Shown piece by piece: positions 29,076 to 57,263 of a DNA stretch of 64,000 bases; position 1 is the first letter of the stretch; each line of letters starts with the position of its first letter. Below the pieces are notes generated by a model that was not told where the DNA came from, did not search any database, and saw only the letters and a list, made by a program, of their open reading frames with translations. The position numbers and the translations under genes were made by a program. Origin of the DNA: Acidimicrobiia bacterium. Its GTDB lineage: Bacteria; Actinomycetota; Acidimicrobiia; Spongiisociales; UBA5794. The stretch is from contig JANTHO010000006.1 of NCBI GenBank assembly GCA_024762335.1, positions 1,912-65,911 of the forward strand, written 5' to 3'.

Positions 29076-29086
29076 GGCGCCTGAGT

Positions 29087-32447: not shown

Positions 32448-32459
32448 GGGGACGCCCCC
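32447..32459. terminator. Short GC hairpin between convergent genes (candidate bidirectional terminator)
   Basis: GGGGG-ACG-CCCCC immediately after the stop of 31266..32447 and 30 nt before the stop of 32489..33472. No T-tract. Confidence 0.3.
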
Positions 32460-32488
32460 CTGCGGCCTCGCCAGAGGGCATTGGGGAT

Positions 32489-41153: not shown

Positions 41154-41155
41154 CG

Positions 41156-41220
41156 CACACCCAGGCGTCTGGCGTTGATATGAATGAAATACGGTCTGTG
41201 GCGACACCAGACTGGGCAGG
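41156..41220 (+). promoter_or_regulatory. Conserved ~65-bp leader element, copy A (between the korB stop and the AlkD-like start)
   Basis: About 75-80% identical to 56593-56660. Contains the inverted repeat GTCTGGCG (41167-41174) / CACCAGAC (41205-41212) and an internal alternative arm GTCTG (41193-41197). Confidence 0.45.
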
Positions 41221-41222
41221 GA

Positions 41223-41946: not shown

Positions 41947-42045
41947 GGCTTCACGGGCTTCGACGTCGAGCGAGATGAGAAAGTGATCCGGTCAACGAAA
42001 GCCGGAGACGCGATCGACGTCGTGCTCATGGCGCGTAGGCCGTGA
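41947..42045 (+). pseudogene. 3' fragment of a SAM methyltransferase gene (paralog of 56667..57263)
   Basis: Reads GFTGFDVERDEKVIRSTKAGDAIDVVLMARRP*, against FAGFDVERNEKVIRSTNAGDAIDIVLVARKP* at 57165-57263. No 5' part is present. Confidence 0.8.
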
Positions 42046-42230
42046 ATCGGATACGCGTTGTACGGATGGTCAACCGGCAGCGCGTCACATCCGTCCAACC
42101 CCCGCCAGGGATCGGGCCGAGAACCCTGCCGTCCTCCTACGTCACGCAGCGGTTGTCACCTTGTACGCAGACCATGCCTTCGGGGACGGTGGCAGCGGAC
42201 TCGTCGCACTTCGCCGTCGACGTGGATCTC
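42046..42230 (-). pseudogene. 3' fragment of a sodX-type signal peptidase gene (paralog of 57265..57735)
   Basis: The minus strand reads PEGMVCVQGDNRCVT*EDGRVLGPIP, against PEGMVWVLGDNRCGSSVDSRVLGPIP in the full copy. It has an in-frame TAG (42137-42139) and a ~30-bp internal deletion. Confidence 0.75.
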
Positions 42231-42269
42231 ACGGACCTGTTGCGTTCAACGGGGACGTGGACGACGAAC
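42225..42269 (+). pseudogene. Fragment matching the last 15 codons of korB
   Basis: DLTDLLRSTGTWTTN against DLADLLRSTGTWTTN* at 41106-41150. 36 of 45 nt are identical, and 7 of the 9 differences are at third codon positions. Confidence 0.7.
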
Positions 42270-42345
42270 GATCAGCCGGGAATCGATGTCGCCACTCTGC
42301 CGCCGCGGTTCCGTGGGGACGGAGTTGAGTTCCTACCGTCCGGCT

Positions 42346-42801
42346 TCAGATGCCGAGCCAGTATGCAATGTCATCGCCGAGGGGCTTGTACTGTGGACAC
42401 AGGTACCGGGGTGCCGCCGAGAGGATGAGCCCGTATGTTGCAACCTCCGTGGAGTCGAGATGGCGGAGATCTTGGGTCCAGAGAACCCGGATCGCGTAGT
42501 GGGCATCCCTTCCCTGGTTGAAGAACCCCTCCAGACTCGCACAGACGTCGTCGCCGGCGACGAGGATCTCGTTGCCGGTCACCGTGCTGCCGAGCGGGAG
42601 CGATCCGTTGACGGCGGCAACGTAGGTGTCGCGAGCTGCCGGATCGCCGTATCGGGGGAGGGTTGATGTGGTCGTTGCCAACGTGGCCGCGGCTTCCTGC
42701 GTGGGGCCGCTCGCGGTCGACCGGCCGATTGCGATTCCCACGAGCAGCGCCACAACGATCGCGACCGCCGCTCCGATCCATGTCCATCGTTCTCGTGTCA
42801 T
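42346..42801 (-). CDS. Membrane-anchored hypothetical protein (N-terminal TM helix; two-Cys extracytoplasmic domain, possibly DUF732-like)
   Basis: Start trimmed to MTRERWTWIGAAVAIVVALLVGIAIG. The C-terminal domain has CASLEGFF ... APRYLCPQY. Confidence 0.6.
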   Translation of the reverse strand: MTRERWTWIGAAVAIVVALLVGIAIGRSTASGPTQEAAATLATTTSTLPRYGDPAARDTYVAAVNGSLPLGSTVTGNEILVAGDDVCASLEGFFNQGRDAHYAIRVLWTQDLRHLDSTEVATYGLILSAAPRYLCPQYKPLGDDIAYWLGI

Positions 42802-42980
42802 GGGGCCACGATACTGCCGTCCCGGATCCCCAGGGCATGCAGGGTCCCGTCCACCGACGATTGAATGGACAATGGCGAAATGAGCGTTACCGTGCAGGTA
42901 CCAAACGGCGGATAGTCCACGGGTTCGAGATGAAGGCCGGTAGGAAGGCGCACTCCAAGCCAGGAGGAAGGCCCGAGAAG

Positions 42981-45900
42981 ATGTCAATCCGAACCGATCG
43001 TCCCGGCCTCAGGGAACTACTCATCGCAACACTGTTCCTGCCGTTCCTACTCGGTTTCACCACGGCCGGGGGAGACTCCGACCTGACGCACGACACATAC
43101 ACCCTCACATTCACTGCCGTGGACGGTGCAGGCCCGGGCGCCTTCGAATCGGCCGTTGTCGAGTCCACGTTCACGATGTTCGGACTCACGTGGACGGGCA
43201 TCGCGCCCGAAGAGGTGTGGTATCGCGCTTCTCCTGCCACCGGACGCTGGTCGGATTGGACATCCTTCGACGTGTCGTCGGACGATCTTCCCGACCCCGG
43301 TGGGAACGAGTCCGACTACAGGCGGTCGAGCACTGATCTGATATACGCAGGCCCGAATGAGCAGATCCAGTTCCGTCTCTCGGGGAACGTGCCGCGCGAC
43401 GTCGAACTCGTTGTGTTCGACACTTCGGGAGGCGTCGACGCCGCGAATTCACCGTTCGTCGAGGAGCCGGAACTGTCTTTGTCCGAGATGTCGGTTCCGT
43501 CCATGCCCGTCATTCGACCGCGTACCGACTGGGACCCCACCAATCGATGTCCCCCCCGTGAGATTCCCGAGGAGATCCAGGTCACGACGGCGATCGTTCA
43601 CCACACGGGCGGCACGAACCGGGCCTACTACGCGTCTGAGGTCCCGAACATCATCCTCGGATACTGCCTCTATCACCGCAACACGCTCGAATTCGACGAC
43701 ATCGCCTACAACTTCCTGATCGACCGATTCGGTGGCATCTGGGAAGGTCGGGCCGGCGGCATCGACAAGGGAATCCGGGGAGGCCACGCCAAGGGTTTCA
43801 GCAGTTACTCGACCGGCATCGTGATGATCGGGAACTTCGAAGGGGCGAGCCCGACGTGGGCTCAGCGGGCCGCGCTCGAACACCTCCTTGCATGGAAACT
43901 CAGCGTCCACAATCTTGATCCTCTCGGCATGACCAACCTCATCTCGATGGGCTCCTACAAGTACGACGAGGGCGTGCCGGTCACTCTCAACACGATCAGC
44001 GGACATCGCGATGTCCAGGCGACGGCATGCCCGGGAATCTACGCCTACAACCTGCTGCCGACCTTCAGGTCCGACGTCGCTTCCGTTTGGAGACCACCAG
44101 CGGTCGACTACTACGCGAATCCCGTCACCGGGGACTTCGACGGTGACGGCGCAGAAGAAGGAGCCGTCTACCGACGCACAGACGGAACTTGGTGGGTCTA
44201 TGACGGAGGGTCGTCGAATATTGCGCTCGATGGACCCGACGGGCAGGCCGTGGATGGTGCGATCGGTGCCGATGTGGACGGAGACGGGTCGGACGAGATC
44301 GTGGTCCGATCCGGCGCGTCCGTGAGCTTCTTGAATCTGTCCGAGGGCGCACTCGCGTCGACCGGAGTTGGTTCTCTGGGATCGGCATCAGATTGGTCCG
44401 TGGACGTCGGGGATGTGGACGGCGACGGACACGAGGATGCTGTGTTCGTGGATGGATCCGGATCCGTTCGGGTCTTGTCCGCGGGAGCCATCGCCCCGTG
44501 GGGTTCCATCGGAGCCGGCCATCAGCTCTCAGCGATCGGTGATTTCGATGGCGACGGTAGAGATGATCTCGCAGGTCTCCGCTCGACCGGCGCAGTCGAC
44601 GTGGCGCTGTCCAACGGTACCGGCTTCGGGTCCGCCGGCGTTTGGGGCGACGCAGGGCCGGAGGGCGGTTGGCAGTACCTGGTCGCAGGCGATCTCGACG
44701 GCGACGGGGATGACGACGTGGCAGCGTTCCGGTCTTCTACGAATACGTGGTATGGGCTGCGGTCGAACACGTCTTTGTTCGCTTCCATGCGTCCCATCGA
44801 GACGCCGACGCTGGACCATTGGAGCGAGGCCTTCCCCTTCGACTACCAGGACGACGGAATCGTCGAAGTAGTCGCGCTCAACGCCTACACCGGGACCTGG
44901 CATCTGGGGCGATTCGACGGATTCGAACCGGTGTTCACCCGCCTCGAAGATGCGCCGCATCGCACCACTGTTGTTCGCAACGAATCCGGGGAGGGAACCT
45001 CGTACCTCTCATGGTTCGGTCAGGAATTCTCGTGGGAAGAGACGGACTTGGGCTACGGCGTGGGTGATGAAGCGGACGCAACACGCCGAATCTTCGGCGC
45101 ATCACGCTACGAGTCGGCGGCCCGGATCTCCCGCGCGGCATTCGCCTCCGCAGATGTTGTCTTCGTTGGAACCGGTGAGAGATATCCGGATGCGCTGACG
45201 GGAGGTTCGGCGGCAGTGCGGCTCGACGCGCCGATGTTGCTCACCTCCTCGGTTTCGCTTCCAGAGAGCACGCGTGCCGAGATCGAGCGACTCCACCCCG
45301 ATCGCATCGTCCTGCTCGGCGGACCGGCGGCGGTCTCAACAGCAGTTGAGGCGGAACTCGCGGCTCTGGCACCGGACGGTGTGCTGAGGATTGGTGGAAC
45401 CGATCGCTATGAAACGGCGGCGATGATCTCGCGAACCTACTTCGCTCCATCCGCCGGGACCGTGTACGTCGCTACGGGGCTGAACTTCCCCGACGCCCTC
45501 GCCGGTGTCCCGGGAGCCGGCAGCGCCGACGCCCCGATCTTGCTGGTCCGTACCGGCTCGGTGCCCGCTACAACGGCGGCTGAAATCCGCCGGCTGGCTC
45601 CCAGCGAGATCGTCATTCTCGGCGGCCCTGTGGCCGTCTCCGAGTCCGTTGCTCAGTCGCTCACGAGTTACGCTCCGACGGTTCGGCGACTGTACGGTCA
45701 CGATCGCTATGGAACGGCCGCGGCGATCTCGGCAGAGGGTTTCGCCTCGGGAGCGGACATCGCATATATCGCTGTTGGAACCAACTTCCCGGATGCGGTC
45801 GCTGCGGGACCGGCGGCGGCACATCTCGGGGGAGTGTTGTTGCTGTCTCGGAGCGACACAGCGACAGCTCAGACGACGGGGGAGCTCCGTAGGCTTCGCG

Positions 45901-46019
45901 TTACCCGGATCACCGTCATCGGGGACGAGAACATCATTTCAGAGGAGGCGATCGATGATCTCGAAGGCATCGGTATCGGCGGTCTAACCAGCCGGATGTC
46001 GAACTTGCCGCGTCCGTAG
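42981..46019 (+). CDS. Surface protein: N-acetylmuramoyl-L-alanine amidase (Amidase_2/PGRP type) + FG-GAP/VCBS-like repeats + 3 x CWB2
   Basis: RBS CAGGAGGAAG before the ATG at 42981, then an N-terminal hydrophobic segment. Amidase motifs TAIVHHTGGTN ... DIAYNFLIDRFGGIWEGR ... ISGHRDVQATACPG. Five DxDGDG loops (GDFDGDG, ADVDGDG, GDVDGDG, GDFDGDG, GDLDGDG). Three CWB2 modules from about 45083. Confidence 0.9.
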   Translation: MSIRTDRPGLRELLIATLFLPFLLGFTTAGGDSDLTHDTYTLTFTAVDGAGPGAFESAVVESTFTMFGLTWTGIAPEEVWYRASPATGRWSDWTSFDVSSDDLPDPGGNESDYRRSSTDLIYAGPNEQIQFRLSGNVPRDVELVVFDTSGGVDAANSPFVEEPELSLSEMSVPSMPVIRPRTDWDPTNRCPPREIPEEIQVTTAIVHHTGGTNRAYYASEVPNIILGYCLYHRNTLEFDDIAYNFLIDRFGGIWEGRAGGIDKGIRGGHAKGFSSYSTGIVMIGNFEGASPTWAQRAALEHLLAWKLSVHNLDPLGMTNLISMGSYKYDEGVPVTLNTISGHRDVQATACPGIYAYNLLPTFRSDVASVWRPPAVDYYANPVTGDFDGDGAEEGAVYRRTDGTWWVYDGGSSNIALDGPDGQAVDGAIGADVDGDGSDEIVVRSGASVSFLNLSEGALASTGVGSLGSASDWSVDVGDVDGDGHEDAVFVDGSGSVRVLSAGAIAPWGSIGAGHQLSAIGDFDGDGRDDLAGLRSTGAVDVALSNGTGFGSAGVWGDAGPEGGWQYLVAGDLDGDGDDDVAAFRSSTNTWYGLRSNTSLFASMRPIETPTLDHWSEAFPFDYQDDGIVEVVALNAYTGTWHLGRFDGFEPVFTRLEDAPHRTTVVRNESGEGTSYLSWFGQEFSWEETDLGYGVGDEADATRRIFGASRYESAARISRAAFASADVVFVGTGERYPDALTGGSAAVRLDAPMLLTSSVSLPESTRAEIERLHPDRIVLLGGPAAVSTAVEAELAALAPDGVLRIGGTDRYETAAMISRTYFAPSAGTVYVATGLNFPDALAGVPGAGSADAPILLVRTGSVPATTAAEIRRLAPSEIVILGGPVAVSESVAQSLTSYAPTVRRLYGHDRYGTAAAISAEGFASGADIAYIAVGTNFPDAVAAGPAAAHLGGVLLLSRSDTATAQTTGELRRLRVTRITVIGDENIISEEAIDDLEGIGIGGLTSRMSNLPRP

Positions 46020-46025
46020 GCGTAT

Positions 46026-46991
46026 TCAGGGTTCGCGTCGCCGTGAGAATCGCACGATGTCTTCGAAGCCGAAAGCCACTGCAGGTAGCGCGAGAGCGAT
46101 CCAGCCGGTCGCTCGGATGAGTGCTGCAGCGAGTGCCCCGACGGCGGCGGGGATGCCGAACAGAGCAGCCAGCGCAGCAAGTCCTAATTCCTGAATTCCG
46201 AGGTTTCCCGGTGTCAGGACGATGAAACTGCTCGCTTGGAGAAGCGCATAGATGGCGATCGCTTCGCCGATTCCGAGATTCCAGTCGATCACGCCGAACA
46301 CGGCCCGGTACAGCGTCACGACGATGATGATCGTGACGAACCAAACAGCGATGAACCGCAGGATGAGACGGACATCTTGCAGCGCTGTCAATGCGGCGGT
46401 TGCAACGCGCCGTGCCGCATCGATGATCCCCGCCGGCGACTCTCGATCCTGCAGCGGGCGGACGAGGCGCCGGATCGCGAACGGTGCACCTGCGACCACA
46501 CCCGCGGCGAGGATGAGGACGAGTGGTGCTGGAAGACCGAAAATCGTCTGTGACGGCGATTGCACGGCGAGGAACGGGGCGGCGACGGCGAGGCTTGTTG
46601 TGACACTCATGATCACGAAAGCGGCCATCCCCCCACCGAAGTCGGCGATGGCGATACCGAATTCACGTTTCAGTTTGAGCGCTCGATACACGTTCCCGCT
46701 CTGAGGGACGAACGTGTTCAGGAAACGTCCGACGGCGAAGATCTTGAACCAGCGCACCGAAGCGATGCTGACATCGGAGGAGGATTCGATGACGATCTTC
46801 TGCCGTTGGCTTTCAGGCAGCAGGTAGAGGACCTGGAGAACGAGAATGACGATCAGGTCGGTCGGGTCGAGATTCGCGAACGTGTCGAGCGCCGGTCGAT
46901 CCCGGAGGATCACCCAGACGACGAGACCGAGTGTCGTTACGACGATGACACCGGACACCCACCGGGGGACGTGGAAGCCGTCGGTGGTCAC
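46026..46991 (-). CDS. Flippase-like / UPF0104 (lysyl-PG synthase TM-region family) membrane protein
   Basis: Eight hydrophobic segments and the motif FVPQSGNVYRALKLKREFGI. GTGA overlap with the upstream GT4 gene. Confidence 0.8.
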   Translation of the reverse strand: MTTDGFHVPRWVSGVIVVTTLGLVVWVILRDRPALDTFANLDPTDLIVILVLQVLYLLPESQRQKIVIESSSDVSIASVRWFKIFAVGRFLNTFVPQSGNVYRALKLKREFGIAIADFGGGMAAFVIMSVTTSLAVAAPFLAVQSPSQTIFGLPAPLVLILAAGVVAGAPFAIRRLVRPLQDRESPAGIIDAARRVATAALTALQDVRLILRFIAVWFVTIIIVVTLYRAVFGVIDWNLGIGEAIAIYALLQASSFIVLTPGNLGIQELGLAALAALFGIPAAVGALAAALIRATGWIALALPAVAFGFEDIVRFSRRREP

Positions 46992-48076
46992 GATACGGCC
47001 GCAACGCTTCGGAGCACCTCAAGCATGGCCGCTACCGAGTCGTTCCATTCGAACGTGCGCCTGACGAACTCGCGGCCGGCGATACCCATGTGCGATCGAG
47101 CGTCCGGGTCGGATGCAAGGTCGACAACGGCGGCGGCGACGGCGACGGGATCCTGTGGTGGTACGAGACATGCGGTAACTCCGTCGATGCACACCTCCCG
47201 AATACCTCCGACGTCGGTCGAGACCACCGGTATGCCCGTAGCCGAGCCTTCGAGTATCACCACACCGAACGACTCGGGTACGATCGTCATGTTGAGGAGA
47301 ACGTCAAACGTTCGCATCAGTTCGGGAATGTAGCCGTGTTCAACGCGTCCGAGGAAGTCCACAGCCTCCTCGACGCCAAGGCTCGCAGTGAGGGACTCAA
47401 GATTCTGTCTCAAGCTCCCTTCACCGACGATTGTGAGGCGCGCATCCGAACGATGGGCGAGGATGGCTGGCATCGCCCGGATCGCGTATTCGATGCCATA
47501 CCGCTGCTCGAGCGACTTGACGAGTCCGATCGACAAGCCGCCGGGTACCGCCGGTATCTCCGGCGGGTGGAACATCTCCGTATCGACACCGAACGGCACG
47601 ACGGTGACCTCTGCGTCGGGGGCCAGCGTCCGTACCCATCCGGCGAGGTAGTGGCTGGCGACGGTGACGCGATCGGCCTTCGCTAGTGCCATGCGGTTGA
47701 TGGTTCGCAGCGTTCGGCTCTGGGCCACACCGTCGGCAGGGATGATGTCAGATCCCCATGCGGTTATCACGACCGGATTGCTGCCGGCGATTCTTGCGAT
47801 GGTGCCGCTGGTCGAAACGAAGTGCGCGTTCACAACATCCGGATTGCAGCGGGCGACGATGCCTCTGGCCGCTGCCGCCAGTCGGGCGTAGGAGAGCAAC
47901 GACCAGGTCGACGACGGGTCATTGACCCGTCCGAGAGACACCGTGTGCACGGGGATGCCGGGAATCGAGGCACTCCGTATCGAAATGATCTCGACAGGGT
48001 GTCCGGCGTCTCGGTATGCCATCGCCCAGCGCTGAAGGTGCGGCGCCCTTGCGTTTCCGATCAGACAGATGCGCAT
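46988..48076 (-). CDS. Glycosyltransferase family 4 (group 1)
   Basis: MRICLIGNARAPHLQRW ... VPESFGVVILEGSATGIPVVSTDVGGIREV (E-x7-E region). Confidence 0.9.
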   Translation of the reverse strand: MRICLIGNARAPHLQRWAMAYRDAGHPVEIISIRSASIPGIPVHTVSLGRVNDPSSTWSLLSYARLAAAARGIVARCNPDVVNAHFVSTSGTIARIAGSNPVVITAWGSDIIPADGVAQSRTLRTINRMALAKADRVTVASHYLAGWVRTLAPDAEVTVVPFGVDTEMFHPPEIPAVPGGLSIGLVKSLEQRYGIEYAIRAMPAILAHRSDARLTIVGEGSLRQNLESLTASLGVEEAVDFLGRVEHGYIPELMRTFDVLLNMTIVPESFGVVILEGSATGIPVVSTDVGGIREVCIDGVTACLVPPQDPVAVAAAVVDLASDPDARSHMGIAGREFVRRTFEWNDSVAAMLEVLRSVAAVS

Positions 48077-49107
48077 CAGGGCCGTCGGTACGATTCGAAG
48101 TGTTGGAGCATCCAGGTTGTGAGATCGACCTTGTCGCGCAGCAGAGCCTTTCGGGCATCGGCCGCCGACACCTGGGCATCGTCGTCCATGAACCCGATGG
48201 TGGCATCGATGGCAGCATCGAAGTCGGTGGGGTCGAAGTGGCGCACTAGCCCGTAGCGCCGTTCGAGGTCGTCGACGTAGCCGCGACCGGTTACCGCGAT
48301 GTACACCGCTGGTGTCCCAAGGACGGCGGCCTCGGAAGCCATCGTCGCAGAATTGCCGACGACCACGTCGGCGAAAGCCAACAGGTGGTGGATCGAGCGC
48401 GCCGGGCCGTCGTACCGGTACGGCGCGAGGTCGTCGGGTAGAGCGGTCTCGGAGCTGATCAACACGCTCCCCCGATCGACCAGGCGCGAGACGAGAAGGC
48501 GTTTCTGCTCGTCGATGAGAGCGAGCTCTGCCCGGTCATGCGAGGACTGTCCCGAGACGAATCGGATAACTGAGAATGGTGTGGAGATGTCGATGCCGAG
48601 TTGTTTCACGAGCTCAGGATCCGGTGTGAACCGATCGGGGTGGAGATAGGCGAGTTCGTGATAGCTCGGGTAGGTGATGTGGTTGCCTCTCACGGGTGCG
48701 GCGTAGCAGTCGGGTGTGACGACTTCCGTTGCGAGGGGGTAGACGACACGGTTCGTGGTCGTCGCCACTTCGGTGTCGTAAAACACAATGGAAGGGATCC
48801 TCAACAGTCGACCGACCGGAGCGATCGAAACGCCCATGATGCCGATCATCACGTCGGGGCGGAACGTGCGAGCGACACGGCCGAGATGGATGGTGCGACC
48901 CGCCCACTCACGAGTCAGACCCATCGGTCCGGTGGCCTGTGTGGAGATCACCGAGTGTCCGAGTCCGTATTCCTCGAGTAGCTCGACGGTGACGTCCTTG
49001 TCGCGGGCTGTGATGAGCACCTCACTGCCACGGGCGCGTGCCTCCGCGATCAGGTTGCGGAAGACGTGCACGTGGGCGGGGTGGAGAATGTCGACGAGGA
49101 TTCGCAT
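48076..49107 (-). CDS. DUF354-family protein (predicted GT-B glycosyltransferase/epimerase-like)
   Basis: MRILVDILHPAHVHVFRNLIAEARARGSEVLITARDKDVTVELLEEYG is the typical DUF354 N-terminus. Start trimmed to the ATG at 49107. Its stop overlaps the GT4 start by 1 nt (TGATG). Confidence 0.8.
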   Translation of the reverse strand: MRILVDILHPAHVHVFRNLIAEARARGSEVLITARDKDVTVELLEEYGLGHSVISTQATGPMGLTREWAGRTIHLGRVARTFRPDVMIGIMGVSIAPVGRLLRIPSIVFYDTEVATTTNRVVYPLATEVVTPDCYAAPVRGNHITYPSYHELAYLHPDRFTPDPELVKQLGIDISTPFSVIRFVSGQSSHDRAELALIDEQKRLLVSRLVDRGSVLISSETALPDDLAPYRYDGPARSIHHLLAFADVVVGNSATMASEAAVLGTPAVYIAVTGRGYVDDLERRYGLVRHFDPTDFDAAIDATIGFMDDDAQVSAADARKALLRDKVDLTTWMLQHFESYRRP

Positions 49108-49156
49108 GGATTGAAACGACCCTACCAGTGGTCGATTGCCGATCCGAGACGGAAGG

Positions 49157-51349
49157 TCATCGGAACAGCCGCGTGAGTTCGATCTGAGTGTCCGGCGGGA
49201 GCGATGATGCGCGGCTGAGGAGCAGTGGTCCACCGTATCGGGCCGCTACGGCCGCTCCGCTGAGGGCGTCCGGGAAGGCTTGTCCGGTCGCGAGGAATAC
49301 CGGCCGGGCGTTGGAGTCGAAGAACGCGGTTGAGAGACTCGCCGCCGTGGCGTACCGATCCGAGCCGGTGATCCGGTCCACGTTCGGTCCGAGTGCCCTG
49401 ATGGATGCCTCCACGCTGTCCGCGACGGCGTTCGTGCCGCCGACGACGATGACGGACGCGGGGGACAAGCGGATGATCTCGGAGCGAGTCGCCTCCGGTA
49501 GATTCGCGCTTCGTGTCAGCAAGATCGGTGCGGAGAGACTTGCAGCGGCGGGCGCAGCCGCGAGGCCGTCGGGAAATGCCTCGCCGGTTACGACCACAAC
49601 CGACTCGACGCTGGGGGAGAACGCATTCAGCGACACGGCCGCTGCAGTTGCGTATCGATCCGACCCGGCGATGCGGGTGATGTCGGCCCCACTTGCCGTC
49701 GCTGCCTGAGCCTCAACGGATGATTCGATGACGGCTTCACCTCCTACGATCACGATTTCGGACGGAGCGAGCCGGCTGAGTTCTGCAGCTGTAGTCGCCG
49801 GGACATCGGTCCGGGTGACGAGCAAGATCGGTGCATCGTGTAGGGCGGCTACGGGGCCGATCGCGAGCGTGTCGGGAAAGTTCTCACCTGTGACGAGGTA
49901 GACACGATCGGCACCATACGGATTGAATTCCCGGGAGACTGCAACCGCTGTTGCGTACCGATCCGGCCCGGCAAGTCGCGATGGGGCAGAACCGATGATC
50001 ATCGCAGCCTCATTCAGCACCGAACTACTGACCGCCGCCGACCCTCCGAGGATGAACGCCTGATCCGCGATCTCCGGCGGCACCGCGGCGAGGGCAGCTG
50101 CCGCAGCGTCGAGTCGACCGGCGCCGTAGAGCGGGTCCCATCCGGGGGCACCGAGGTCGACGGCGGTGTCGATCAATAGCTCCTTCAAACCGGTGACGGT
50201 GAGAAGAGGATCAACGGAGAGAGCCAAAGCCGCGGCACCGGATACGTGCGGTGCCGCGGAGGAAGTACCGATCTGCTCGACGATACGCCAGCCGAGCGAG
50301 TCGAAACTCTCCTGGAAGATCCCGTCTGGGCGCCCGTTTCCGTCGAGATCTCCGGTGTTGCCCCCGGGCGCCACCAGATCGAGGGCGCTCCCAAAGTTGG
50401 AGTAGACCGCCAGGGTGTCGATGGTGGTCGTTGCCCCGACGGCGAAGGAGGCAGGATTGTTAGCCGGAGAAGAAACGAACCCGATGCCGTCGTTGCCGGC
50501 GGCGACGACGACCAAGACGCCGCGATCGGTGGCGTCGTCGATGGCCGAATCGACTGCAATGTCGGAGCATGTGGGCCAGGTCGACGAACATGCGCGGCCA
50601 AGAGACAGGTTGATGATGTCGGCGCCGTGATCAACAGCCCACTGGATGCCGTTGGCCACCTCGAGAGAGGATCCACTTCCTGCGCTGAGAACCTTGACGG
50701 GCATGATGGAGACGTCGGGTGCGACACCGGCAGCTCCGACGCCGTTATTGGTGCACTGGGCAATCGTGCCGGTGACGTGGGTCCCGTGACCGTGGTCGTC
50801 GAGTACCGAGGCGAGCGTTGTCTCGCCGGTGAAAGCGTTGTAGGGGGCGACGAAGGACCGGCATGTGAGATCGGAACCCCCAAGGGCGATGCCGGAGTCG
50901 AGTACAGCCACCGTCACATCCGTGCCCGTTCCGTGTTCCCATGCACTCTCGACGCCGATTGTTCGAAGATGCCACTGGTCGGGGTATGCAGGGTCATTCG
51001 GTTCGGAAGCCTCCCGATATTCGAACTCCGGTGCCACCTGCATCGGAATCCGGCCAAGTCTGAATCGTTCTTGCAGATCGCCGATCGTCACACCCGGATT
51101 GATCGGCATCCGGGACCACATCTGCGTTTTCCCCTGAGATTCTGGACGGACGAGAACATGCCCCGTCGATGCTCCGGTGAATTCGATTACCGTTTCCGGT
51201 GTCGTTGCTGCAACCGACTGGGCGACGGGCCCGAGCCATACGGCCAAAGCCATGAAGAGCAGCGCCAGTGGTCGGGCATTGGAGATCACGAGTGACCGAC
51301 GCCAAGGGATCATGCCGTGGCAGGCTGATCCAGCGACTTGACTCCTCAC
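49157..51349 (-). CDS. Secreted subtilisin-like serine protease (S8) + 3 x CWB2
   Basis: Catalytic triad contexts VAVLDSGI, HGHGTHVTGTIA and GTSSAAPHVSGAAALA. Three C-terminal CWB2 modules (about 49157-50070). The GTG at 51349 overlaps the upstream stop (GTGA); an alternative ATG lies at 51313. Confidence 0.9.
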   Translation of the reverse strand: MRSQVAGSACHGMIPWRRSLVISNARPLALLFMALAVWLGPVAQSVAATTPETVIEFTGASTGHVLVRPESQGKTQMWSRMPINPGVTIGDLQERFRLGRIPMQVAPEFEYREASEPNDPAYPDQWHLRTIGVESAWEHGTGTDVTVAVLDSGIALGGSDLTCRSFVAPYNAFTGETTLASVLDDHGHGTHVTGTIAQCTNNGVGAAGVAPDVSIMPVKVLSAGSGSSLEVANGIQWAVDHGADIINLSLGRACSSTWPTCSDIAVDSAIDDATDRGVLVVVAAGNDGIGFVSSPANNPASFAVGATTTIDTLAVYSNFGSALDLVAPGGNTGDLDGNGRPDGIFQESFDSLGWRIVEQIGTSSAAPHVSGAAALALSVDPLLTVTGLKELLIDTAVDLGAPGWDPLYGAGRLDAAAAALAAVPPEIADQAFILGGSAAVSSSVLNEAAMIIGSAPSRLAGPDRYATAVAVSREFNPYGADRVYLVTGENFPDTLAIGPVAALHDAPILLVTRTDVPATTAAELSRLAPSEIVIVGGEAVIESSVEAQAATASGADITRIAGSDRYATAAAVSLNAFSPSVESVVVVTGEAFPDGLAAAPAAASLSAPILLTRSANLPEATRSEIIRLSPASVIVVGGTNAVADSVEASIRALGPNVDRITGSDRYATAASLSTAFFDSNARPVFLATGQAFPDALSGAAVAARYGGPLLLSRASSLPPDTQIELTRLFR

Positions 51350-52956
51350 CGTCGATCAGGATGGAGCGGGTTGTAGCTCCACCACCAGTACTGGGTCCTG
51401 GCTGTGCCATCCGCGTAGGCAATGGTCCGGCTGACGCGCACGCTCCCTCCATCCTCGGTCGTGGCGCTACCCGAGAGTCCGGCCGAAACGCGCCGACCGT
51501 CATTCCATCCCCAGAATTGGACGGTGACGGACGTCGCTGTGTGCTTCGTGCGCATCGTGACGGGGGCCGTTGTGTCGTTACGGAATTTCACGTCGGGTCC
51601 GGTCCATCCGAGGGTTGCCTCTCGTCCGAGCGGATAGTGGCTGAACCAGATCGAATGAGGCTTGTGATAGACATCCTCATAGCCACCGAAGAAGATCGCG
51701 TTGTAGAGGGTTGTAGCGAACTGGCTGGTACCGCCGCCGATGTTCGTGGGACTGTCACAACAGTAGATCTCTCCATTGATGATCGCCGGTGCGGCGACAT
51801 AGCCCTTCTCCACCGTGCGTTGTCCGACGTAATCGTTCAGTGAGAACGTTTCGCCGGGCAGCACCGTTGCTCCGTCGGCTGCGTCGGCAATCGTGTGGAT
51901 GTTTGTGACACGTGCCTGCCCAGCCTTGTAGTACGTCGTAAATTCGGAAACCTTCACGATCGGAGTGCAGGGGCGCCCTGTGAAGGAGGTGATCGCTGTC
52001 GCGGTTGCGGTGGGAAGCCCTGCTTCAGAGACCAACAGCATCGGGTTCGCGAGGGCGAGCGGGGTAGCGGCAACCGCATCGGGGAACTTCAGTCCGGTCG
52101 CAATGTAGATCGTGGACGCCGGTGTCGGCAGGGTCTCCGAAGTTGCCGCAGCGGTCGCGTAGCGGTCTCTTCCGGCAAGGCGCGAAACCGGGGCATGCGC
52201 GGATAGGGCGGTCTCCACATTCGGATCGATGGCTGCTGGCCCGCCAAGGATGACGATCTTGCCCGGTTGGAGACGGACGATTTCGGCTTCGGTGGCTGTT
52301 GACAATTGGTTCGGGTCTGTGAGGAGGATCGGACCGCCGGCCATATAGGCAGCCGGACCTCCGACGAGAGCATCGGGGAAGTTGGTGCCGGTCGCAATGT
52401 ACGCGACGTCGACCGGAGTTGCGAACGTCGATGCCGAGATGGCGGCCGCTGTTGCGTCACGGTTTGATCCGGCGATGCGCGTGACCTTGAACTCCGTAGC
52501 CAACTGGGATTCGACAGACGCGGAGATAGCGCCCTCCCCGCCGAGCACGACGACCTGGGTGACGTTGAGGTCCCTCAGCGCCAGGAGTGTTTCGCCCGGA
52601 AGGACCGCCGCTGTCGTGAGTAACAGAGGAGCATCGTTCATCGCGGCAACGGGTCCGGCCGCTACGGCGTCCGGGTACGCGGTGCCGTTCGCCAGATACG
52701 CCGTGGTCGCACCGGATGGAAATGCCTGTCGGGCGATCTGCGCTGCGGTTGCGTAGCGGTTCGGTCCTGCGATCCGAGTGACGGTGCCGTCCGTACACGA
52801 CGCGAGATGCCCTTCGACGGCTTCGGGCACGACGGCGGTCCCCCCGAGAATCACGATGTCCACGTTCGTTTGCGTGTCTTCGGCAAGCGCGGCCGCGGGG
52901 GCCGATAGGCCGCCGAGCATTGCGACAACGAGGAACATGCGGACAAATCGCGACAT
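51346..52956 (-). CDS. Secreted protein: N-terminal 3 x CWB2 + C-terminal VanW-like domain
   Basis: Signal peptide MSRFVRMFLVVAMLGGLSAPAAALA after AGGAAA. Three CWB2 modules. VanW-like LPGETFSLNDYVGQRTVEKGYVAAPAI ... GGGTSQFATTLYNAIFFGGYEDV. Start trimmed from 53322 to 52956. Confidence 0.85.
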   Translation of the reverse strand: MSRFVRMFLVVAMLGGLSAPAAALAEDTQTNVDIVILGGTAVVPEAVEGHLASCTDGTVTRIAGPNRYATAAQIARQAFPSGATTAYLANGTAYPDAVAAGPVAAMNDAPLLLTTAAVLPGETLLALRDLNVTQVVVLGGEGAISASVESQLATEFKVTRIAGSNRDATAAAISASTFATPVDVAYIATGTNFPDALVGGPAAYMAGGPILLTDPNQLSTATEAEIVRLQPGKIVILGGPAAIDPNVETALSAHAPVSRLAGRDRYATAAATSETLPTPASTIYIATGLKFPDAVAATPLALANPMLLVSEAGLPTATATAITSFTGRPCTPIVKVSEFTTYYKAGQARVTNIHTIADAADGATVLPGETFSLNDYVGQRTVEKGYVAAPAIINGEIYCCDSPTNIGGGTSQFATTLYNAIFFGGYEDVYHKPHSIWFSHYPLGREATLGWTGPDVKFRNDTTAPVTMRTKHTATSVTVQFWGWNDGRRVSAGLSGSATTEDGGSVRVSRTIAYADGTARTQYWWWSYNPLHPDRR

Positions 52957-53046
52957 GCGGTAGTTTCCTGATGGTGGGTGGGGCGAGGATAGTGCGATCG
53001 GGCACAATCCTTTAGAACTCAAGATCTGCGGCGAAGGAGCCGAAAC

Positions 53047-54564
53047 ATGACCATGACCGAAAACGCGGGTCGTCGGCTCACATTCGTTCTGATCCTGGTC
53101 GCGCTCGTCATGGCGCTCTTCACGACGGCCGCATCGGCGGAGCCACAGAGCTCCGACTTTTCCGCGTCGTCCGCAGATCTGATCTATCCGATCACGTTTC
53201 CCGTTGTCGGTGATACGTACTACTCGGATACCTTCGGCGCTCCCCGATCCGGAGGAAGAACTCACAAGGGAATCGACATCATGGGCTATGGGTGGAAGGG
53301 ACTGCCCGTAGTTGCCGCTCACGATGGAACGATCACCCTGACGACCGAATCGGCCGGTCGAGACTGCTGCGCGATCTGGGGACTGACAGGCGATGACGGA
53401 TGGTCATCGCTCTACATCCACCTCAACAACGATACACCCGGGACCGACGATGGGAAGGGATGGGGGTTCGCCCCGGGTATCGACGTGGGAGTCCACGTCA
53501 AAGAAGGACAGCTCGTCGGGTGGGTCGGGGACAGCGGCAACGCCGAGTGGGTCAGCCCCCACCTCCACTTCGAGCTCCACAAGGACGGCGTCGCCGTCAA
53601 TCCATACCCCTCGCTCGAGGCAGCGACGAGGATCGACATGCCTCGCGTCGCCGGACACGATCGGTTTGCGACGGCAATCGAGATCTCGATGGATGCTTTT
53701 CCCGATGGGGCCGACGTCGTCTACCTAGCGACGGGCTACAACTTTCCCGATGCTCTCGCAGGTGGCCCCGCAGCGGTGAAGACGGACGGGCCGATTCTTC
53801 TGTCGAGGGTGGAGTCGCTTCCCGCCGAAACGCTGACCGAATTGCGTCGTCTTTCTCCGTCGCGAATCGTGATCCTTGGCGGGGAAGTTGCCCTGGATCG
53901 GTCCGTGGCCGAAGATCTGGCGCCGCTCGGGGCGGAGGTACTGCGCCTGGCCGGTCGGGATCGATATGACACTGCAGCGATGATCTCGGCGATGCATTTC
54001 GAGCCGGGGATCAGAATGGCATTCGTGACAGGCGGCATCGATTTCCCGGCTGCCGTCGCCGGAGCTCCCGCTGCCGCGGCCAATGGCTCGCCTTTGTTGC
54101 TCTCCAGGCCCGATGACCTGCCTTCATATACGCGAGACGAACTGGCACGCCTCCAGCCGGACGTCATCATTGTACTGGGCGACGTCAGCGTTGTCGGAGA
54201 CGCAGTGATGCGGGAACTCAGCCCGTACGCCCGATCGGGGAGGGTTGAACGACTCGCAGGAAGTGATGACTTCGGTACCGCGGTAGCGATCTCTCAGTGG
54301 GCTCACCCCGATGGATCCGCAACGGCCTACCTTGCCACGAGCGGCACATTTGTCGATGCTCTCGCCGGTGTTTCGGTGGCTCTGAGAGACGGAGCGCCGA
54401 TCCTCCTGGTTGATGAAGACCTCCCGTCTGATGTCTCCGCGGAGATCGAACGTCTCGGAGCGGATCGCGTCGTGGCTCTGGGTGGTCCGGCGGCGGTCGT
54501 GCCACGCGTTGCCATGCGGATTTGGAGTCTCTTCAACGGCAACGACATGCCGGTCTGGAAGTAG
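53047..54564 (+). CDS. Secreted M23 (LytM-type) metallopeptidase + 3 x CWB2
   Basis: THKGIDIMG, GWVGDSGNAEWVSPHLHFELH, then three CWB2 modules (about 53640-54540). Divergent from 51346..52956. Confidence 0.9.
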   Translation: MTMTENAGRRLTFVLILVALVMALFTTAASAEPQSSDFSASSADLIYPITFPVVGDTYYSDTFGAPRSGGRTHKGIDIMGYGWKGLPVVAAHDGTITLTTESAGRDCCAIWGLTGDDGWSSLYIHLNNDTPGTDDGKGWGFAPGIDVGVHVKEGQLVGWVGDSGNAEWVSPHLHFELHKDGVAVNPYPSLEAATRIDMPRVAGHDRFATAIEISMDAFPDGADVVYLATGYNFPDALAGGPAAVKTDGPILLSRVESLPAETLTELRRLSPSRIVILGGEVALDRSVAEDLAPLGAEVLRLAGRDRYDTAAMISAMHFEPGIRMAFVTGGIDFPAAVAGAPAAAANGSPLLLSRPDDLPSYTRDELARLQPDVIIVLGDVSVVGDAVMRELSPYARSGRVERLAGSDDFGTAVAISQWAHPDGSATAYLATSGTFVDALAGVSVALRDGAPILLVDEDLPSDVSAEIERLGADRVVALGGPAAVVPRVAMRIWSLFNGNDMPVWK

Positions 54565-54749
54565 CCGGCGAGTTCGGGTCATCTTGACCTGTGGTAACTC
54601 ACGGCGTACGGCGGCGTCAACGGTGATGCCTCAGGTCTCCTTTCAAGCTTCGGACCCGCTGCGGGCTCCTGTGATGCCCCGGGCCGCCCAACCATCGCTC
54701 TGGACCGTCTCGTAGAGGGACGGTCCCGTCCGGACAACGCCATGGTGCC

Positions 54750-54980
54750 TCACCTGTGCTCTTGAAAGGCCACTCCGATGGCTGCGGAGACGTCGTCAAC
54801 GTCTTCGAATCTTGCCGGTGCCGGCACCAGGATCGCGGGAACGGGGATGGTGAGCGTGGCACGACCGTCTGCCCTGCGGATGCGACTCTCACTCGCCGGG
54901 CACTTCTCGCCCAGGCCGCTGTCGGCTGGATGTCTGACAACTGCCACGTCGCCCTCGAGAACCCGTTCTAGCGGATCCAC
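54750..54980 (-). CDS. Small hypothetical ORF (76 aa), weakly supported
   Basis: This is the only frame in the 460-bp gap with G/C-rich third codon positions (about 55 of 76 by my count) and an acidic, non-Arg/Pro-rich composition. GTG start, no recognisable RBS, no recognised motif. Confidence 0.3.
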   Translation of the reverse strand: MDPLERVLEGDVAVVRHPADSGLGEKCPASESRIRRADGRATLTIPVPAILVPAPARFEDVDDVSAAIGVAFQEHR

Positions 54981-55025
54981 GGCACGAACGGAACCGACGA
55001 TGTTCGCTGCGATCGAGGATGAATC

Positions 55026-56483
55026 TCAAGGGATGGCGTGAACCGTCGTTCCGATGGGGGCCCACTGATAGAGAGCGTAGGCCTTGGCGTCGGATTGTCG
55101 AACGCAACCACCCGAAAGGTGGGTACCGAGCTGATCCTCCGTCTGCAACGGCCGACCGTCGGCATATCTCGGGATCGCGTGGAACCCGTACGACCATTTG
55201 TTGTCCCAGGTATATGGTCTCACGAACCGAACCATGTATTTCATCGTGATACCGCCGTACGGGGCCCACGCGTTCACGGACTTCGAGAAGACCTTGTACG
55301 TTGCATAGTGGGGGATCCCAACACGGCCGGACACGAGATAGGTGTCATGCAAAGTCTCGTCCGCGTTGATGAGCCAGACTCGCTGTGCCGAGTTGGAGTA
55401 GATGATCCGCTTGCCCGAACCGACCGCCGGGTACGGTGGAACCCACGACTCGCACGCCGATCCTGTGCGAGCGGCGATCGCATCGCCGGTGATCGAGTTC
55501 ATCGAAGCGGCCGTCACGAAGAGGATCGGCGCCCCTCCTGTGGCGGGCGTGGCGGCCAGCCCATCGGGGAAGTTGTTGGCCGTGACGATGAAAACCCGGC
55601 TGCCAGGCGCGTCCGCGGCTACAGCAGCAGCCGTGGTGTATCGGGAAGCTCCGGATATCCGTGTGACCTCGCCCGTGGCGAAGGTCGCCAGCTCCGACAT
55701 GACAGCGTCGCTAACCACACCTGAACTGCCGACGATCACGATCCGCTCGGGCCCGAGCCGACGCAACTCCGCCCCTGTAGCGTCCGGTACGTTGTCCTTT
55801 GTGACGAGGAGCAGTGGAGCGTTCTCCGTCGCGGCACGGGGTCCGGCAACCATTGCGTCGAGGTAATTGAGGCCCGTCACCACAAAGGCGGTCGAGGCGC
55901 CGGCGCTGAAGTACCACTGTGAGATCGCGGCCGCGGTTTCGTAGCGGTCTCGACCGTCGAGTCGTATGACTTCTGGGAAACGCGACTTGAGTTCCTGCTC
56001 GACTTTGGCGGAAATGACGGCGGTTCCGCCGAGAAGGATGATCCGGTTCGGGGACACTCGCGAGAGCGCGGCGTCCGTTGCCCATGGAATGTCGTCCCGT
56101 TCGGTCAGAAGCATCGGGGCATTCAGCAGTGCCGCGACGGGTCCTCCGCCGAGGGCATCGGGGTAATTCAAGCCCGTGGCGAGGAAGACGGTGTCCGCTG
56201 ATTCCCACTCGTCGGCCAGAGCAGCAGCCGTTTCGTACCGGTTGGGTCCAGCGATTCTTCGGACGCTATCGGGGGTACATGACCCGAGATGATCGACCAT
56301 GGCGTCAGGTATGACCGCGGTGCCTCCCACAACCACGATCTCAGCATCCGACGTGGCTGCCTGTGCAGATGCCAGGCCGACGATCTGCACGAGTGTCAAT
56401 ACCAGGGCCATCCCCGCCATGATCATGAATCGTTGATGTCGCACGCGTTTTCCTCCCAAATGGGTCATCGGCAGAACGGACAT
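55026..56483 (-). CDS. Secreted protein: N-terminal 3 x CWB2 + C-terminal YkuD-type L,D-transpeptidase domain
   Basis: Signal peptide ...MIMAGMALVLTLVQIVGLASAQA. Three CWB2 modules. YkuD-like C-terminus GFHAIP ... GTHLSGGCVRQSDAKAYALYQWAPIGTTVHAI (catalytic Cys context). Confidence 0.85.
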   Translation of the reverse strand: MSVLPMTHLGGKRVRHQRFMIMAGMALVLTLVQIVGLASAQAATSDAEIVVVGGTAVIPDAMVDHLGSCTPDSVRRIAGPNRYETAAALADEWESADTVFLATGLNYPDALGGGPVAALLNAPMLLTERDDIPWATDAALSRVSPNRIILLGGTAVISAKVEQELKSRFPEVIRLDGRDRYETAAAISQWYFSAGASTAFVVTGLNYLDAMVAGPRAATENAPLLLVTKDNVPDATGAELRRLGPERIVIVGSSGVVSDAVMSELATFATGEVTRISGASRYTTAAAVAADAPGSRVFIVTANNFPDGLAATPATGGAPILFVTAASMNSITGDAIAARTGSACESWVPPYPAVGSGKRIIYSNSAQRVWLINADETLHDTYLVSGRVGIPHYATYKVFSKSVNAWAPYGGITMKYMVRFVRPYTWDNKWSYGFHAIPRYADGRPLQTEDQLGTHLSGGCVRQSDAKAYALYQWAPIGTTVHAIP

Positions 56484-56592
56484 CTGCCTGAACGCCCTCG
56501 TACCTCCACGTTGAATGAATTATACGCTGGATGACCCGCCGGTACGCCAGTCAGCCGAGTGGACAACAAAGACCGCATAGAGACTGCCCGCC

Positions 56593-56660
56593 CCCACGCA
56601 GGATTCTGGCGCTGATCAGAAAGAAATATCGTCTGTGGCAACGCCAGATTGCATAGGGTG
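56593..56660 (+). promoter_or_regulatory. Conserved ~65-bp leader element, copy A' (upstream of the methyltransferase)
   Basis: Homologous to 41156-41220. Inverted repeat TCTGGCG (56604-56610) / CGCCAGA (56642-56648) with about 31 nt between the arms. Confidence 0.45.
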
Positions 56661-56666
56661 GCGCTC

Positions 56667-57263
56667 ATGGACATCGATGCTTTCCGTGACATGTGGGACG
56701 ACCGGTACAACGCGAAGGGCGCTGTGTGGGGGCTCGAGCCGAACCGGTTCCTCGTCGAGATCGCCGACGGGCTGAGTCCGCGCCGTGTCCTCGATCTCGG
56801 ATGCGGTCAGGGACGCAACTCGCTGTGGCTCGCCGCGCAGGGGCACACGGTCACCGGTCTCGACCTGTCGCCGGTCGCCATCGACCAGGCCCGCGAAGCA
56901 GCAGCGAAACTCGGTCTCGACATCACGTTCGAAGCCGTCGACCTCTCCACATGGGATCCTGCGGGGCAGGAGTGGGATCTCGTCATCCTGACCTACCTGC
57001 ACCTCCCCGACGACCTGCGGCGCATCGTGCACCGGACGGCGCGAGAAGCCGTCGCTCCCGGTGGAACCGTCGCCGTCATCGCCCACCACCTAGAGAATCT
57101 GACTACCGGGGCGGGCGGTCCGCAGAACGCCGAACTGCTCTTCACCGAAACGCAACTCGCTGAGGACTTCGCCGGCTTCGACGTCGAGCGAAATGAGAAG
57201 GTGATCCGGTCAACGAATGCCGGAGACGCGATCGACATCGTGCTCGTGGCACGCAAACCGTAG
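56667..57263 (+). CDS. Class I SAM-dependent methyltransferase (TehB-like small-molecule type)
   Basis: RVLDLGCGQGRNSLWLAAQGHTVTGLDLSPVAIDQA, WDLVILTYLHL. Start trimmed to the ATG at 56667. Confidence 0.9.
   Translation: MDIDAFRDMWDDRYNAKGAVWGLEPNRFLVEIADGLSPRRVLDLGCGQGRNSLWLAAQGHTVTGLDLSPVAIDQAREAAAKLGLDITFEAVDLSTWDPAGQEWDLVILTYLHLPDDLRRIVHRTAREAVAPGGTVAVIAHHLENLTTGAGGPQNAELLFTETQLAEDFAGFDVERNEKVIRSTNAGDAIDIVLVARKP

Follow-up and report, generated by a model that had tools for sequence, protein, structure and literature searches.

The CWB2 domain was first described in the autolysins of Bacillus subtilis (review PMC5817068). In Clostridioides difficile, the genes of the Cwp proteins cluster beside a wall-polysaccharide locus, and a P-[ILV]-[ILV]-[LV] motif present in each CWB2 repeat is required for anchoring, its proline being dispensable (Willing et al. 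2015, PMC4973711). The occurrence of CWB2 in Actinobacteria, especially in Micrococcales, was recorded in a 2018 review (PMC5817068), and fusions of CWB2 to the classes of enzymes described below have been catalogued (PMC6403190). In the literature, we found no functional work on CWB2 outside the Firmicutes, and nothing on Acidimicrobiia. Here we describe a 14.3-kb cluster of genes for CWB2-anchored wall enzymes (~42271 to 56588 by alignment) in a 64-kb stretch of contig JANTHO010000006.1, hereafter called the window (63% GC), from an uncultured Acidimicrobiia-like member of Actinomycetota. As in C. difficile, the cluster lies beside a wall-polysaccharide locus. It is probably an old, vertically inherited cluster resident at korB, and a local duplication would have moved a small block containing a DNA_alkylation gene next to it. 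A first-pass annotation, made from the sequence alone, had described such a system as not studied in Actinomycetota. This is only partly true: we found no functional study, but the occurrence of the domain is on record, and the names 'cell wall-binding repeat-containing protein' and 'putative cell wall-binding protein' are in use for these proteins at NCBI and JGI.

Six open reading frames (ORFs) of the window each code for three CW_binding_2 stretches, with whole-protein E values of 1e-48 to 2e-56 and scores of 161-189 bits in Pfam, the gathering score of that family (PF04122) being 24.9 bits. A hidden Markov model (HMM) built from the window's own modules detected exactly 18 of them in the 64 kb, and all belong to these six proteins. 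The ORFs scanned extend over 33417-35573(+), 42663-46019(+), 49157-51349(-), 51346-53322(-), 53047-54564(+) and 55026-56483(-). Signal peptides were called with a simple hydrophobicity heuristic (n-h-c pattern) from the most plausible start codons; all six proteins have one, in which a basic n-region is followed by an h-region of 12 residues (mean Kyte-Doolittle value 2.2-3.4) and an A-x-A-like site. The five proteins encoded in the cluster have different heads, namely an Amidase_2 domain with FG-GAP repeats (called AmiFG), an S8 subtilase, a VanW domain, an M23 endopeptidase and a YkuD L,D-transpeptidase. Catalytic motifs are readable in M23 (HxxxD and HxH), YkuD (SGGCVR) and S8 (D/H/S motifs). 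The CWB2 triplet is N-terminal in the VanW and YkuD proteins and C-terminal in the others, including the sixth protein, which is encoded outside the 14.3 kb and whose match to Glyco_hydro_26 is weak (27 bits in Pfam). Pfam, the module HMM and the signal-peptide check thus agree with the first-pass description of five secreted proteins with three CWB2 modules each and different heads, and of a sixth, GH26-like one outside. Every criterion for membership in the CWB2 proteins that could be run is passed by the six proteins.

The P-[ILM]-L-[LF] motif is found in 16 of the 18 modules and its hydrophobic triad in all of them; the two modules devoid of proline, the second of the GH26-like protein ('AVLL') and the third of AmiFG ('VLLL'), keep the triad. 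The third repeat is the shortest of the three. The modules are ~41% identical to one another, and those of the cluster and of the outside GH26-like protein are equally diverged. We also considered positional orthology of the modules (first with first, and so on) and rejected it for lack of signal, with identities of 41.7% within and 40.7% between positions.

At the sequence level, the triplet is homologous over its whole length to those of Cwp8 (5J6Q; E 4e-27), Cwp6 (5J72; E 1e-25) and SlpA-HMW. We modelled the YkuD protein with AlphaFold2 from a 36-sequence alignment (mean predicted local distance difference test score 88.8). Foldseek superposes the modelled triplet as one unit on that of SlpA-HMW (7ACY_B; E 5e-18, root-mean-square deviation (rmsd) 2.7 A, 312 columns) and on that of Cwp8 (E 2e-17, rmsd 2.5 A over 314 columns); the match to Cwp6 has an E value of 3e-20 but an rmsd of 5.9 A. 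The modelled head matches L,D-transpeptidases. In the model, the three repeats are predicted to pack into one pseudo-threefold module, like those of Cwp6, Cwp8 and SlpA. The parallel with the Cwp proteins that had been drawn from the sequence thus holds for the predicted fold and for the architecture.

These features suggest that the five Sec-exported enzymes would be held non-covalently on the wall by the pseudo-trimeric triplet. The amidase, M23, YkuD and VanW proteins would cleave or re-link peptidoglycan there, and the S8 protease might process other surface proteins. By analogy with C. difficile, what the CWB2 module binds is probably not peptidoglycan but a secondary wall polymer of anionic character, and the adjoining ~30-kb polysaccharide locus is the most likely source of this candidate ligand. 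This locus codes for a sulfotransferase, an ABC-2 exporter, RmlABCD, many GT2 and GT4 glycosyltransferases (GTs), a PMT-like membrane GT, a dehydrogenase of UDP-N-acetylmannosamine (UDP-ManNAc) and a UDP-GlcNAc 2-epimerase. The gene content, with its rml, GT, ManNAc/N-acetylmannosaminuronic acid (ManNAcA) and sulfotransferase genes, supports the earlier proposal that the cluster lies beside a chemically different polymer locus. Since it differs from that of the PSII locus, the ligand is probably not PSII. The LPG_synthase_TM, GT4 and DUF354 genes embedded in the cluster possibly contribute to its synthesis.

We compared the locus with those of relatives on other contigs (given here by L numbers). 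Those in which the cluster is seen next to korB or to DUF402-DNA_alkylation-MT-SodX are 52-75% identical to the window in protein, and the closest relatives available are at ~70-75%. Among GTDB species representatives, KorB identity reaches only 72-73%, the best matches being to metagenome-assembled genomes (MAGs) of Acidimicrobiia or Actinomycetota. AmiFG has ~28 full-length orthologues of the same architecture, with 39-72% identity. The gene order AmiFG-LPG_synthase_TM-GT4-DUF354-S8-VanW-M23-YkuD is common to L107, L108, L113, L115 and L116, except that a small gene with a faint SLH match takes the place of AmiFG in L115 and L116. The LPG_synthase_TM/GT4/DUF354 module is kept inside the cluster in all close relatives. 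At the left edge, the first gene of the cluster lies 60-170 nt beyond korB in L107 and L108 and 76 nt beyond it in L112, which also keeps the upstream DUF3048-like, amidase and korA genes. In L107, korB and the gene for a two-Cys protein are arranged tail to tail, as after a 3' stub of korB (korB') that precedes the cluster in the window. At the right edge, L083, L114 and L115 have the order YkuD-DUF402-DNA_alkylation-MT-SodX(-SodN-MurJ), in which MT is a methyltransferase gene and SodX an S26 peptidase gene.

The conservation of both edges indicates that korB-cluster-DUF402-DNA_alkylation-MT-SodX-SodN is the ancestral order in this clade. The korB' stub thus marks the original korB-cluster junction. 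What is particular to the window is a 1.07-kb block lying between korB and korB', which consists of a leader, the DNA_alkylation gene and 3' fragments of the MT and sodX genes (MT' and sodX'), and the right side of its cluster has lost DUF402 and DNA_alkylation.

The first-pass annotation had read the same arrangement the other way round, with the 14.3 kb as an apparently mobile island inserted exactly between the korB stop codon and the leader of a contiguous korB-leader-MT-SodX locus. The copies of korB and of the leader on which it relied are real (they were recovered by alignments within the window and are seen in independent assemblies): the first leader starts at most 4 nt after the korB stop codon, and 14.3 kb lie between korB' and the second one. 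Two further observations go in the same direction. A CWB2 gene is found nearby in only 1 of 80 korB loci of other Actinomycetota species, and the gene directly after korB in the outgroup L109 is DUF402, which in L083 and L114 is the neighbour of DNA_alkylation-MT-SodX. At greater depth, one can thus conceive of an ancestor with korB-DUF402-DNA_alkylation-MT-SodX and no cluster. However, the cluster is present at korB in L107, L108 and L112, with no scars at that edge, and at DUF402-DNA_alkylation-MT-SodX in L083, L114 and L115, so that any insertion would predate the separation of lineages that are 52-75% identical in protein. In every relative that could be examined, the cluster is conserved at this position, and those relatives show no scars at the korB edge; this is essentially the pattern that the first-pass annotation itself had named as a refutation of the island. 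The equal divergence of the CWB2 modules inside and outside the cluster is another argument against it. We found no empty site among these relatives, all at or below the ~70-75% protein identity given above, nor in a korB-anchored scan of GTDB representatives, which have at most 72-73% KorB identity and different downstream genes. An MT-anchored scan of metagenomes yielded L083 but no close relative.

The cluster also fails the tests for a genomic island or an integrative mobile element. Pfam and NCBIfam revealed no integrase, transposase or relaxase in its nine called genes, and the window contains no tRNA gene. The only transposase gene of the window, an IS30-like one at 730-1938, is 40 kb away. 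The GC content varies from 0.62 to 0.645 across the cluster and from 0.60 to 0.65 elsewhere, i.e. there is no shift, and the GC content at third codon positions (0.69-0.75) is like that of the polysaccharide locus. Finally, the direct repeats on either side are pieces of host genes and not att sites. A recent island insertion is thus largely refuted, and we regard the whole idea of a portable island at this site as very improbable. The polarity is reversed: the small DNA_alkylation block, and not the cluster, arrived between korB and its neighbours.

How this block formed can be read in part from the repeats (Table 1). Self-BLAST of the window aligns 41949-42212 with 57167-57436 (78.5% over 270 nt, E 2e-59), a repeat made of the last 97 nt of the MT gene and the 3' end of the minus-strand SodX-like gene that precedes sodN. 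The two leaders match over 57 nt (41158-41214 and 56595-56651; 79%, E 4e-6), and korB' (42225-42269) is 80% identical over 45 nt to the 3' terminus of korB (E 1e-4). The sodX' fragment contains an in-frame stop codon, shows a gap of 6 nt and has lost 32 nt between GCAC[A/C]TC repeats. When this deletion of 32 nt is allowed for, its homology reaches the GATCTC at 42225-42230, which is the exact start of the homology of korB'. The two parental sites have 10 bp in common, GATCTCGCCG, at 41106-41115 in korB and 57478-57487 in sodX; counting both strands, the window contains this 10-mer only three times, these two sites included.

Such a joint on microhomology, from a distal to a proximal site and head to tail, is the signature of a tandem or segmental duplication and equally that of one end of an illegitimate recombination. 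We propose that, from an ancestral state with the cluster immediately 3' of korB and DUF402-DNA_alkylation-MT-SodX-SodN on its other side, a head-to-tail duplication junction would have joined GATCTCGCCG in sodX to its counterpart close to the korB 3' end. Redundant copies would then have been lost, to give korB-leader-DNA_alkylation-MT'-sodX'-korB'-cluster-leader-MT-SodX; the order of these steps is conjectural. Each gene would have survived once, DNA_alkylation in the first copy and the cluster and MT in the second. Thus, it is the DNA-repair gene that would have moved, and not the cluster. As in microhomology-mediated tandem duplications, there is a 10-bp head-to-tail novel junction, the repeats are collinear, and one copy of each gene is decayed or lost. 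Unlike in these, the copies are ~21% diverged, which indicates an old event, and the clean removal of a whole copy of the cluster has to be postulated.

The metagenomic origin of the sequence and the ~79% identity of the repeats, as might be found between two co-occurring relatives, could also suggest a chimera, i.e. mis-joined contigs of two related populations in a metagenome bin. Nevertheless, the left junction is seen again in two independent assemblies, which come from different projects. A JGI contig (L001, 3300019850) covers 39383-42252 of the window at 99.8% identity, from korA-korB through the leader, DNA_alkylation and MT' to sodX', and a Logan contig (L111, SRR19843165) covers 41767-56019 at 100%, from the 3' end of DNA_alkylation through the cluster. 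The junction is therefore not an assembly artefact, and it lies on microhomology inside genes rather than at a repeat at a contig end. A mis-join is thus the most improbable of the explanations that we considered.

A more serious alternative, although an unlikely one in our view, is that the copies are alleles from two lineages, brought together by homology-facilitated illegitimate recombination with DNA of a related organism. One end would have been in homologous sequence and the other at GATCTCGCCG, between sodX of one partner and korB of the other; the incoming piece would have been either the segment bearing the cluster or the korB-leader-DNA_alkylation segment. A single event would then account for the junction. 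The korB' stub speaks for it: its translation, DLTDLLRSTGTWTTN, keeps 14 of the 15 residues of korB, DLADLLRSTGTWTTN, at a nucleotide divergence of ~25%, and 9 of the 13 nucleotide differences are at third codon positions (P ~0.009 relative to an even spread). Furthermore, korB and korB' are as similar to korB of L112 (83 and 79%, respectively) as to each other (75%). However, the excess at third positions is not significant if one copy remained functional while the other decayed (expected share ~0.45-0.5), and the third-position share pooled over all fragments is 30/66. MT' and sodX' are clearly decayed, with the stop codon mentioned above and changes evenly spread over the codon positions. 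In addition, MT' is 86% identical to the MT gene of the window and only 62-65% identical to those of the relatives, which indicates that the copies diverged after the split from the sampled relatives; MT' and sodX' are both closer to the window's own copies than to relatives, in contrast with the korB/korB' pair. Duplication within the genome is thus favoured, but with lengths of 48-270 nt the fragments are too short to decide.

Several points weigh against an old resident cluster with a local duplication beside it. If the whole cluster was duplicated, three later deletions are required, of the first copy of the cluster (clean, from the korB stop codon to the leader), of the 5' part of the first MT copy and of the second DNA_alkylation copy. 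The clean contact between the korB stop codon and the leader in the first copy resembles an 'empty site'. The third-position excess in korB' hints at a once-functional, diverged allele and thus at recombination with a relative's DNA, and the korB/korB' pair shows no more similarity than either copy does to korB of L112. With the closest relative at ~70-75% protein identity, the event can be dated and polarized only indirectly. The ORFs in the gaps between cluster genes were inspected by eye for mobility functions, and the polysaccharide locus is proposed as the source of the ligand from its neighbourhood with the cluster. Even so, long residence of the cluster and local duplication remain the explanation that we consider probable, and they carry a lesson for genome scanning: flanking repeats of gene fragments do not tell which segment is the newcomer, and here the relatives reversed the polarity deduced from a single sequence.

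Table 1. Coordinates of the features of the window discussed in the text
Feature	Position	Strand	Remarks
Large cell-wall polysaccharide locus	4165..33472	.	Pfam
GH26-like + C-terminal 3x CWB2, secreted	33594..35573	+	Sixth CWB2 protein, outside 14.3 kb
korA (38266-40140) + korB (40137-41153), 2-oxoacid:ferredoxin oxidoreductase subunits	38266..41153	+	
Leader copy 1	41152..41222	+	Directly after korB stop, upstream of DNA_alkylation gene
DNA_alkylation repair gene (PF08713)	41223..41915	+	In relatives, flanked by DUF402 and MT on other side of cluster
MT', decayed 3' fragment of methyltransferase gene	41949..42045	+	86% identical to 57167-57263
sodX', decayed 3' fragment of SodX-like S26 peptidase gene	42046..42232	-	Ends at GATCTC junction
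korB', 3' stub of korB (48 nt)	42225..42270	+	Junction with sodX' on GATCTC(GCCG)
Membrane-anchored two-Cys protein, 151 residues	42346..42801	-	Adjoins korB also in L107 and L112
Amidase_2 + FG-GAP (AmiFG) + C-terminal 3x CWB2, secreted	42981..46019	+	Pfam, module HMM
LPG_synthase_TM (flippase-like) membrane protein	46026..46991	-	Pfam, NCBIfam
GT4 glycosyltransferase	46988..48076	-	Pfam, NCBIfam
DUF354 protein, GT-B-like N-terminal half	48076..49107	-	Pfam
S8 subtilase + C-terminal 3x CWB2, secreted	49157..51313	-	Pfam, NCBIfam, module HMM
VanW domain + N-terminal 3x CWB2, secreted	51346..52956	-	Pfam, module HMM
M23 endopeptidase + C-terminal 3x CWB2, secreted	53047..54564	+	HxxxD and HxH motifs
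YkuD L,D-transpeptidase head + N-terminal 3x CWB2, secreted	55026..56483	-	SGGCVR motif
Leader copy 2	56589..56666	+	Upstream of intact MT gene
Intact S-adenosylmethionine (SAM)-dependent methyltransferase MT (TehB/TPMT-like)	56667..57263	+	
Intact S26 peptidase, SodX-like	57265..57735	-	Second GATCTCGCCG site at 57478-57487
Nickel superoxide dismutase SodN	57856..58284	+	

The palindrome present in both leaders is imperfect (TCTGGCG...~33 nt...C(G/A)CCAGA) and could be an operator or a hairpin of the 5' untranslated region; a consensus fold of the two sequences gave a weak palindrome only. Rfam has no match at its gathering thresholds in the whole window, leaders included, and no promoter-like or terminator-like sites were found in 41000-43100. 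We also tried the leader as a remnant of DUF402 and rejected this origin: a by-eye match ('KYGLW' with 'KYGIW') failed, tblastn gave no match, and the local alignment scores against L083 and L109 fall within the distribution of shuffled sequences.

The remaining genes of the cluster correspond to the membrane-anchored two-Cys protein and the glycosyltransferase/flippase-like module that had been noticed at first. The former has one N-terminal transmembrane segment and no family match in Pfam or NCBIfam. For DUF354, a literature search returned only unrelated DUF354x families. The 460-nt gap between the M23 and YkuD genes, inspected by eye, contains no convincing ORF or mobility function.

In the neighbourhood, the GH26-CWB2 gene stands at the border of the polysaccharide locus and is followed by DUF3048, amidase, korA and korB genes, a block that is syntenic in relatives. 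The more distant L109 and L110 (49% identity for AmiFG, 79% for KorB) have the order DNA_alkylation(-) ... DUF3048-amidase-korA-korB-DUF402-SH3_3-AmiFG-LPG_synthase_TM-GT4-M23-GH26-GT2-GT2-epimerase, in which the M23 and GH26 proteins carry CWB2, so that the CWB2 genes are contiguous with the polysaccharide locus. When positions 1-23003 of these contigs are compared with 30000-49000 of the window, DUF3048-amidase-korAB together with AmiFG-LPG_synthase_TM-GT4 are inverted relative to the GH26-CWB2 gene and the polysaccharide locus. Their cluster is devoid of DUF354, S8 and YkuD genes, and a VanW-CWB2 gene adjoins DNA_alkylation on the far side. In L117, an orthologue of the YkuD-CWB2 protein (10001-11422, 50% identical) is encoded alone among alr, tsaBDE, glmS, glmM and rplM/rpsI, which indicates that the cluster is not universal among CWB2-bearing relatives.

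On the 3' side of the cluster, the MT, SodX and SodN genes are followed by those of an MFS transporter, a Uma2 nuclease and MurJ. The MFS and Uma2-family genes (58764-60664) form a second small lineage-specific insertion, because sodN and murJ are adjacent in L114. Between the Uma2 gene and murJ, a perfect 29-nt inverted repeat (60668-60696 and 61152-61180, with an imperfect flanking extension) brackets a 128-residue ORF (60740-61123(-)) and may represent a mobile or palindromic element of small size. The IS30-like transposase gene mentioned above (HTH_38 and rve domains) is situated where the polysaccharide locus ends on its far side, and has imperfect inverted ends of ~60 nt (659-718 and 1935-1994); it is the only mobility gene that we found in the window.

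The YkuD head links this cluster to another type of anchor. The C-terminal 132 residues of the YkuD protein (head at 55026-55460 of the window) are 89% identical to those of the homologous proteins P0169 and P0173, whose N-terminal part consists of SLH repeats in the place of CWB2, with matches above the Pfam cut-off; the closest CWB2-anchored orthologues show no higher identity over the head (81-89%). The loci of the SLH-anchored YkuD proteins are L118 (10001-11170) and L119 (10001-11074). P0169 and a third homologue, P0211 (79% over the head), are encoded next to polysaccharide loci with a GT2::PS_pyruv_trans fusion (CsaB-like), a type of pyruvyltransferase that creates the SLH ligand in Firmicutes (PMC6030368). 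Neither an SLH domain nor a pyruvyltransferase was detected among the window proteins scanned. This looks like a swap between SLH and CWB2 anchors with a matching polymer locus in Actinomycetota; swaps between the two systems have been reported for Peptostreptococcaceae (bioRxiv 10.1101/2025.04.02.646754). Separately, the close relatives L115 (14889-15471) and L116 (135-1598 and 12278-12850) have genes with faint SLH matches on the borders of the CWB2 cluster, in the place of AmiFG in both and also of DUF402 in L116, which suggests that both types of anchors may coexist in some genomes of the clade.

We therefore tentatively suggest, as an idea that could well prove wrong, that a clade of Acidimicrobiia-like bacteria from marine sediments or hydrothermal sites runs a complete CWB2/secondary-polymer display system, while close relatives use SLH domains and a pyruvylated polymer. 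If this were true, the swapping of whole anchor/polymer systems proposed for Peptostreptococcaceae would also operate in Actinomycetota, and the LPG_synthase_TM/GT4/DUF354 module would help make or export a new, non-PSII ligand of CWB2. The near-identical YkuD heads on SLH and CWB2 anchors form a natural anchor-swap pair for testing the co-evolution of anchors and polymers. We find nothing mechanistically unexpected in the CWB2 cluster itself, and this pair is a neat lead.

The display systems based on SLH domains and a secondary polymer of the cell wall that is pyruvylated (CsaB) in Bacillus anthracis and Paenibacillus alvei resemble that of the window in that three-repeat anchors bind, or in the window would bind, a dedicated secondary wall polymer. 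As in Peptostreptococcaceae, the anchors appear exchangeable between orthologous enzymes and co-vary with polymer genes. The window differs from the former in its use of CWB2, and the putative swap concerns MAGs of Actinomycetota and not Firmicutes. With LytC (CwlB) and LytB of B. subtilis, it shares the targeting, putative here, of a peptidoglycan amidase to the wall by CWB2 repeats. However, B. subtilis has one enzyme together with its modifier in a single operon, whereas five or six different enzymes share the anchor here, in one conserved cluster.

The closest similarity is to the Cwp family of C. difficile (Cwp6, Cwp8, Cwp22, Cwp84 and SlpA, with the PSII/AP polymer locus). Both sets consist of Sec-exported proteins in which three non-identical CWB2 repeats are arranged in tandem at the N or C terminus, with a P-I/L-L-L motif, a third repeat that is the shortest and the same three-module fold, predicted in our case; in both, the heads include an amidase, an L,D-transpeptidase and a protease. 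In contrast, the amidase of the window is of type 2 and that of Cwp6 an Amidase_3, and its protease belongs to S8, that of Cwp84 being a cysteine protease. Further differences are the VanW, M23 and GH26-like heads, and neither an SlpA-like S-layer protein nor secA2 was seen in the window. Its polymer locus has rhamnose, ManNAc(A) and sulfotransferase genes, and the host belongs to Actinomycetota, with a high GC content. Thus, a conserved cluster of an uncultured high-GC actinobacterium puts five different peptidoglycan enzymes on the same anchor, with a chemically different polysaccharide locus alongside. Since C. difficile is almost the only bacterium in which the anchoring by CWB2 has been dissected, this cluster offers a second, distant system in which to ask what CWB2 recognizes.

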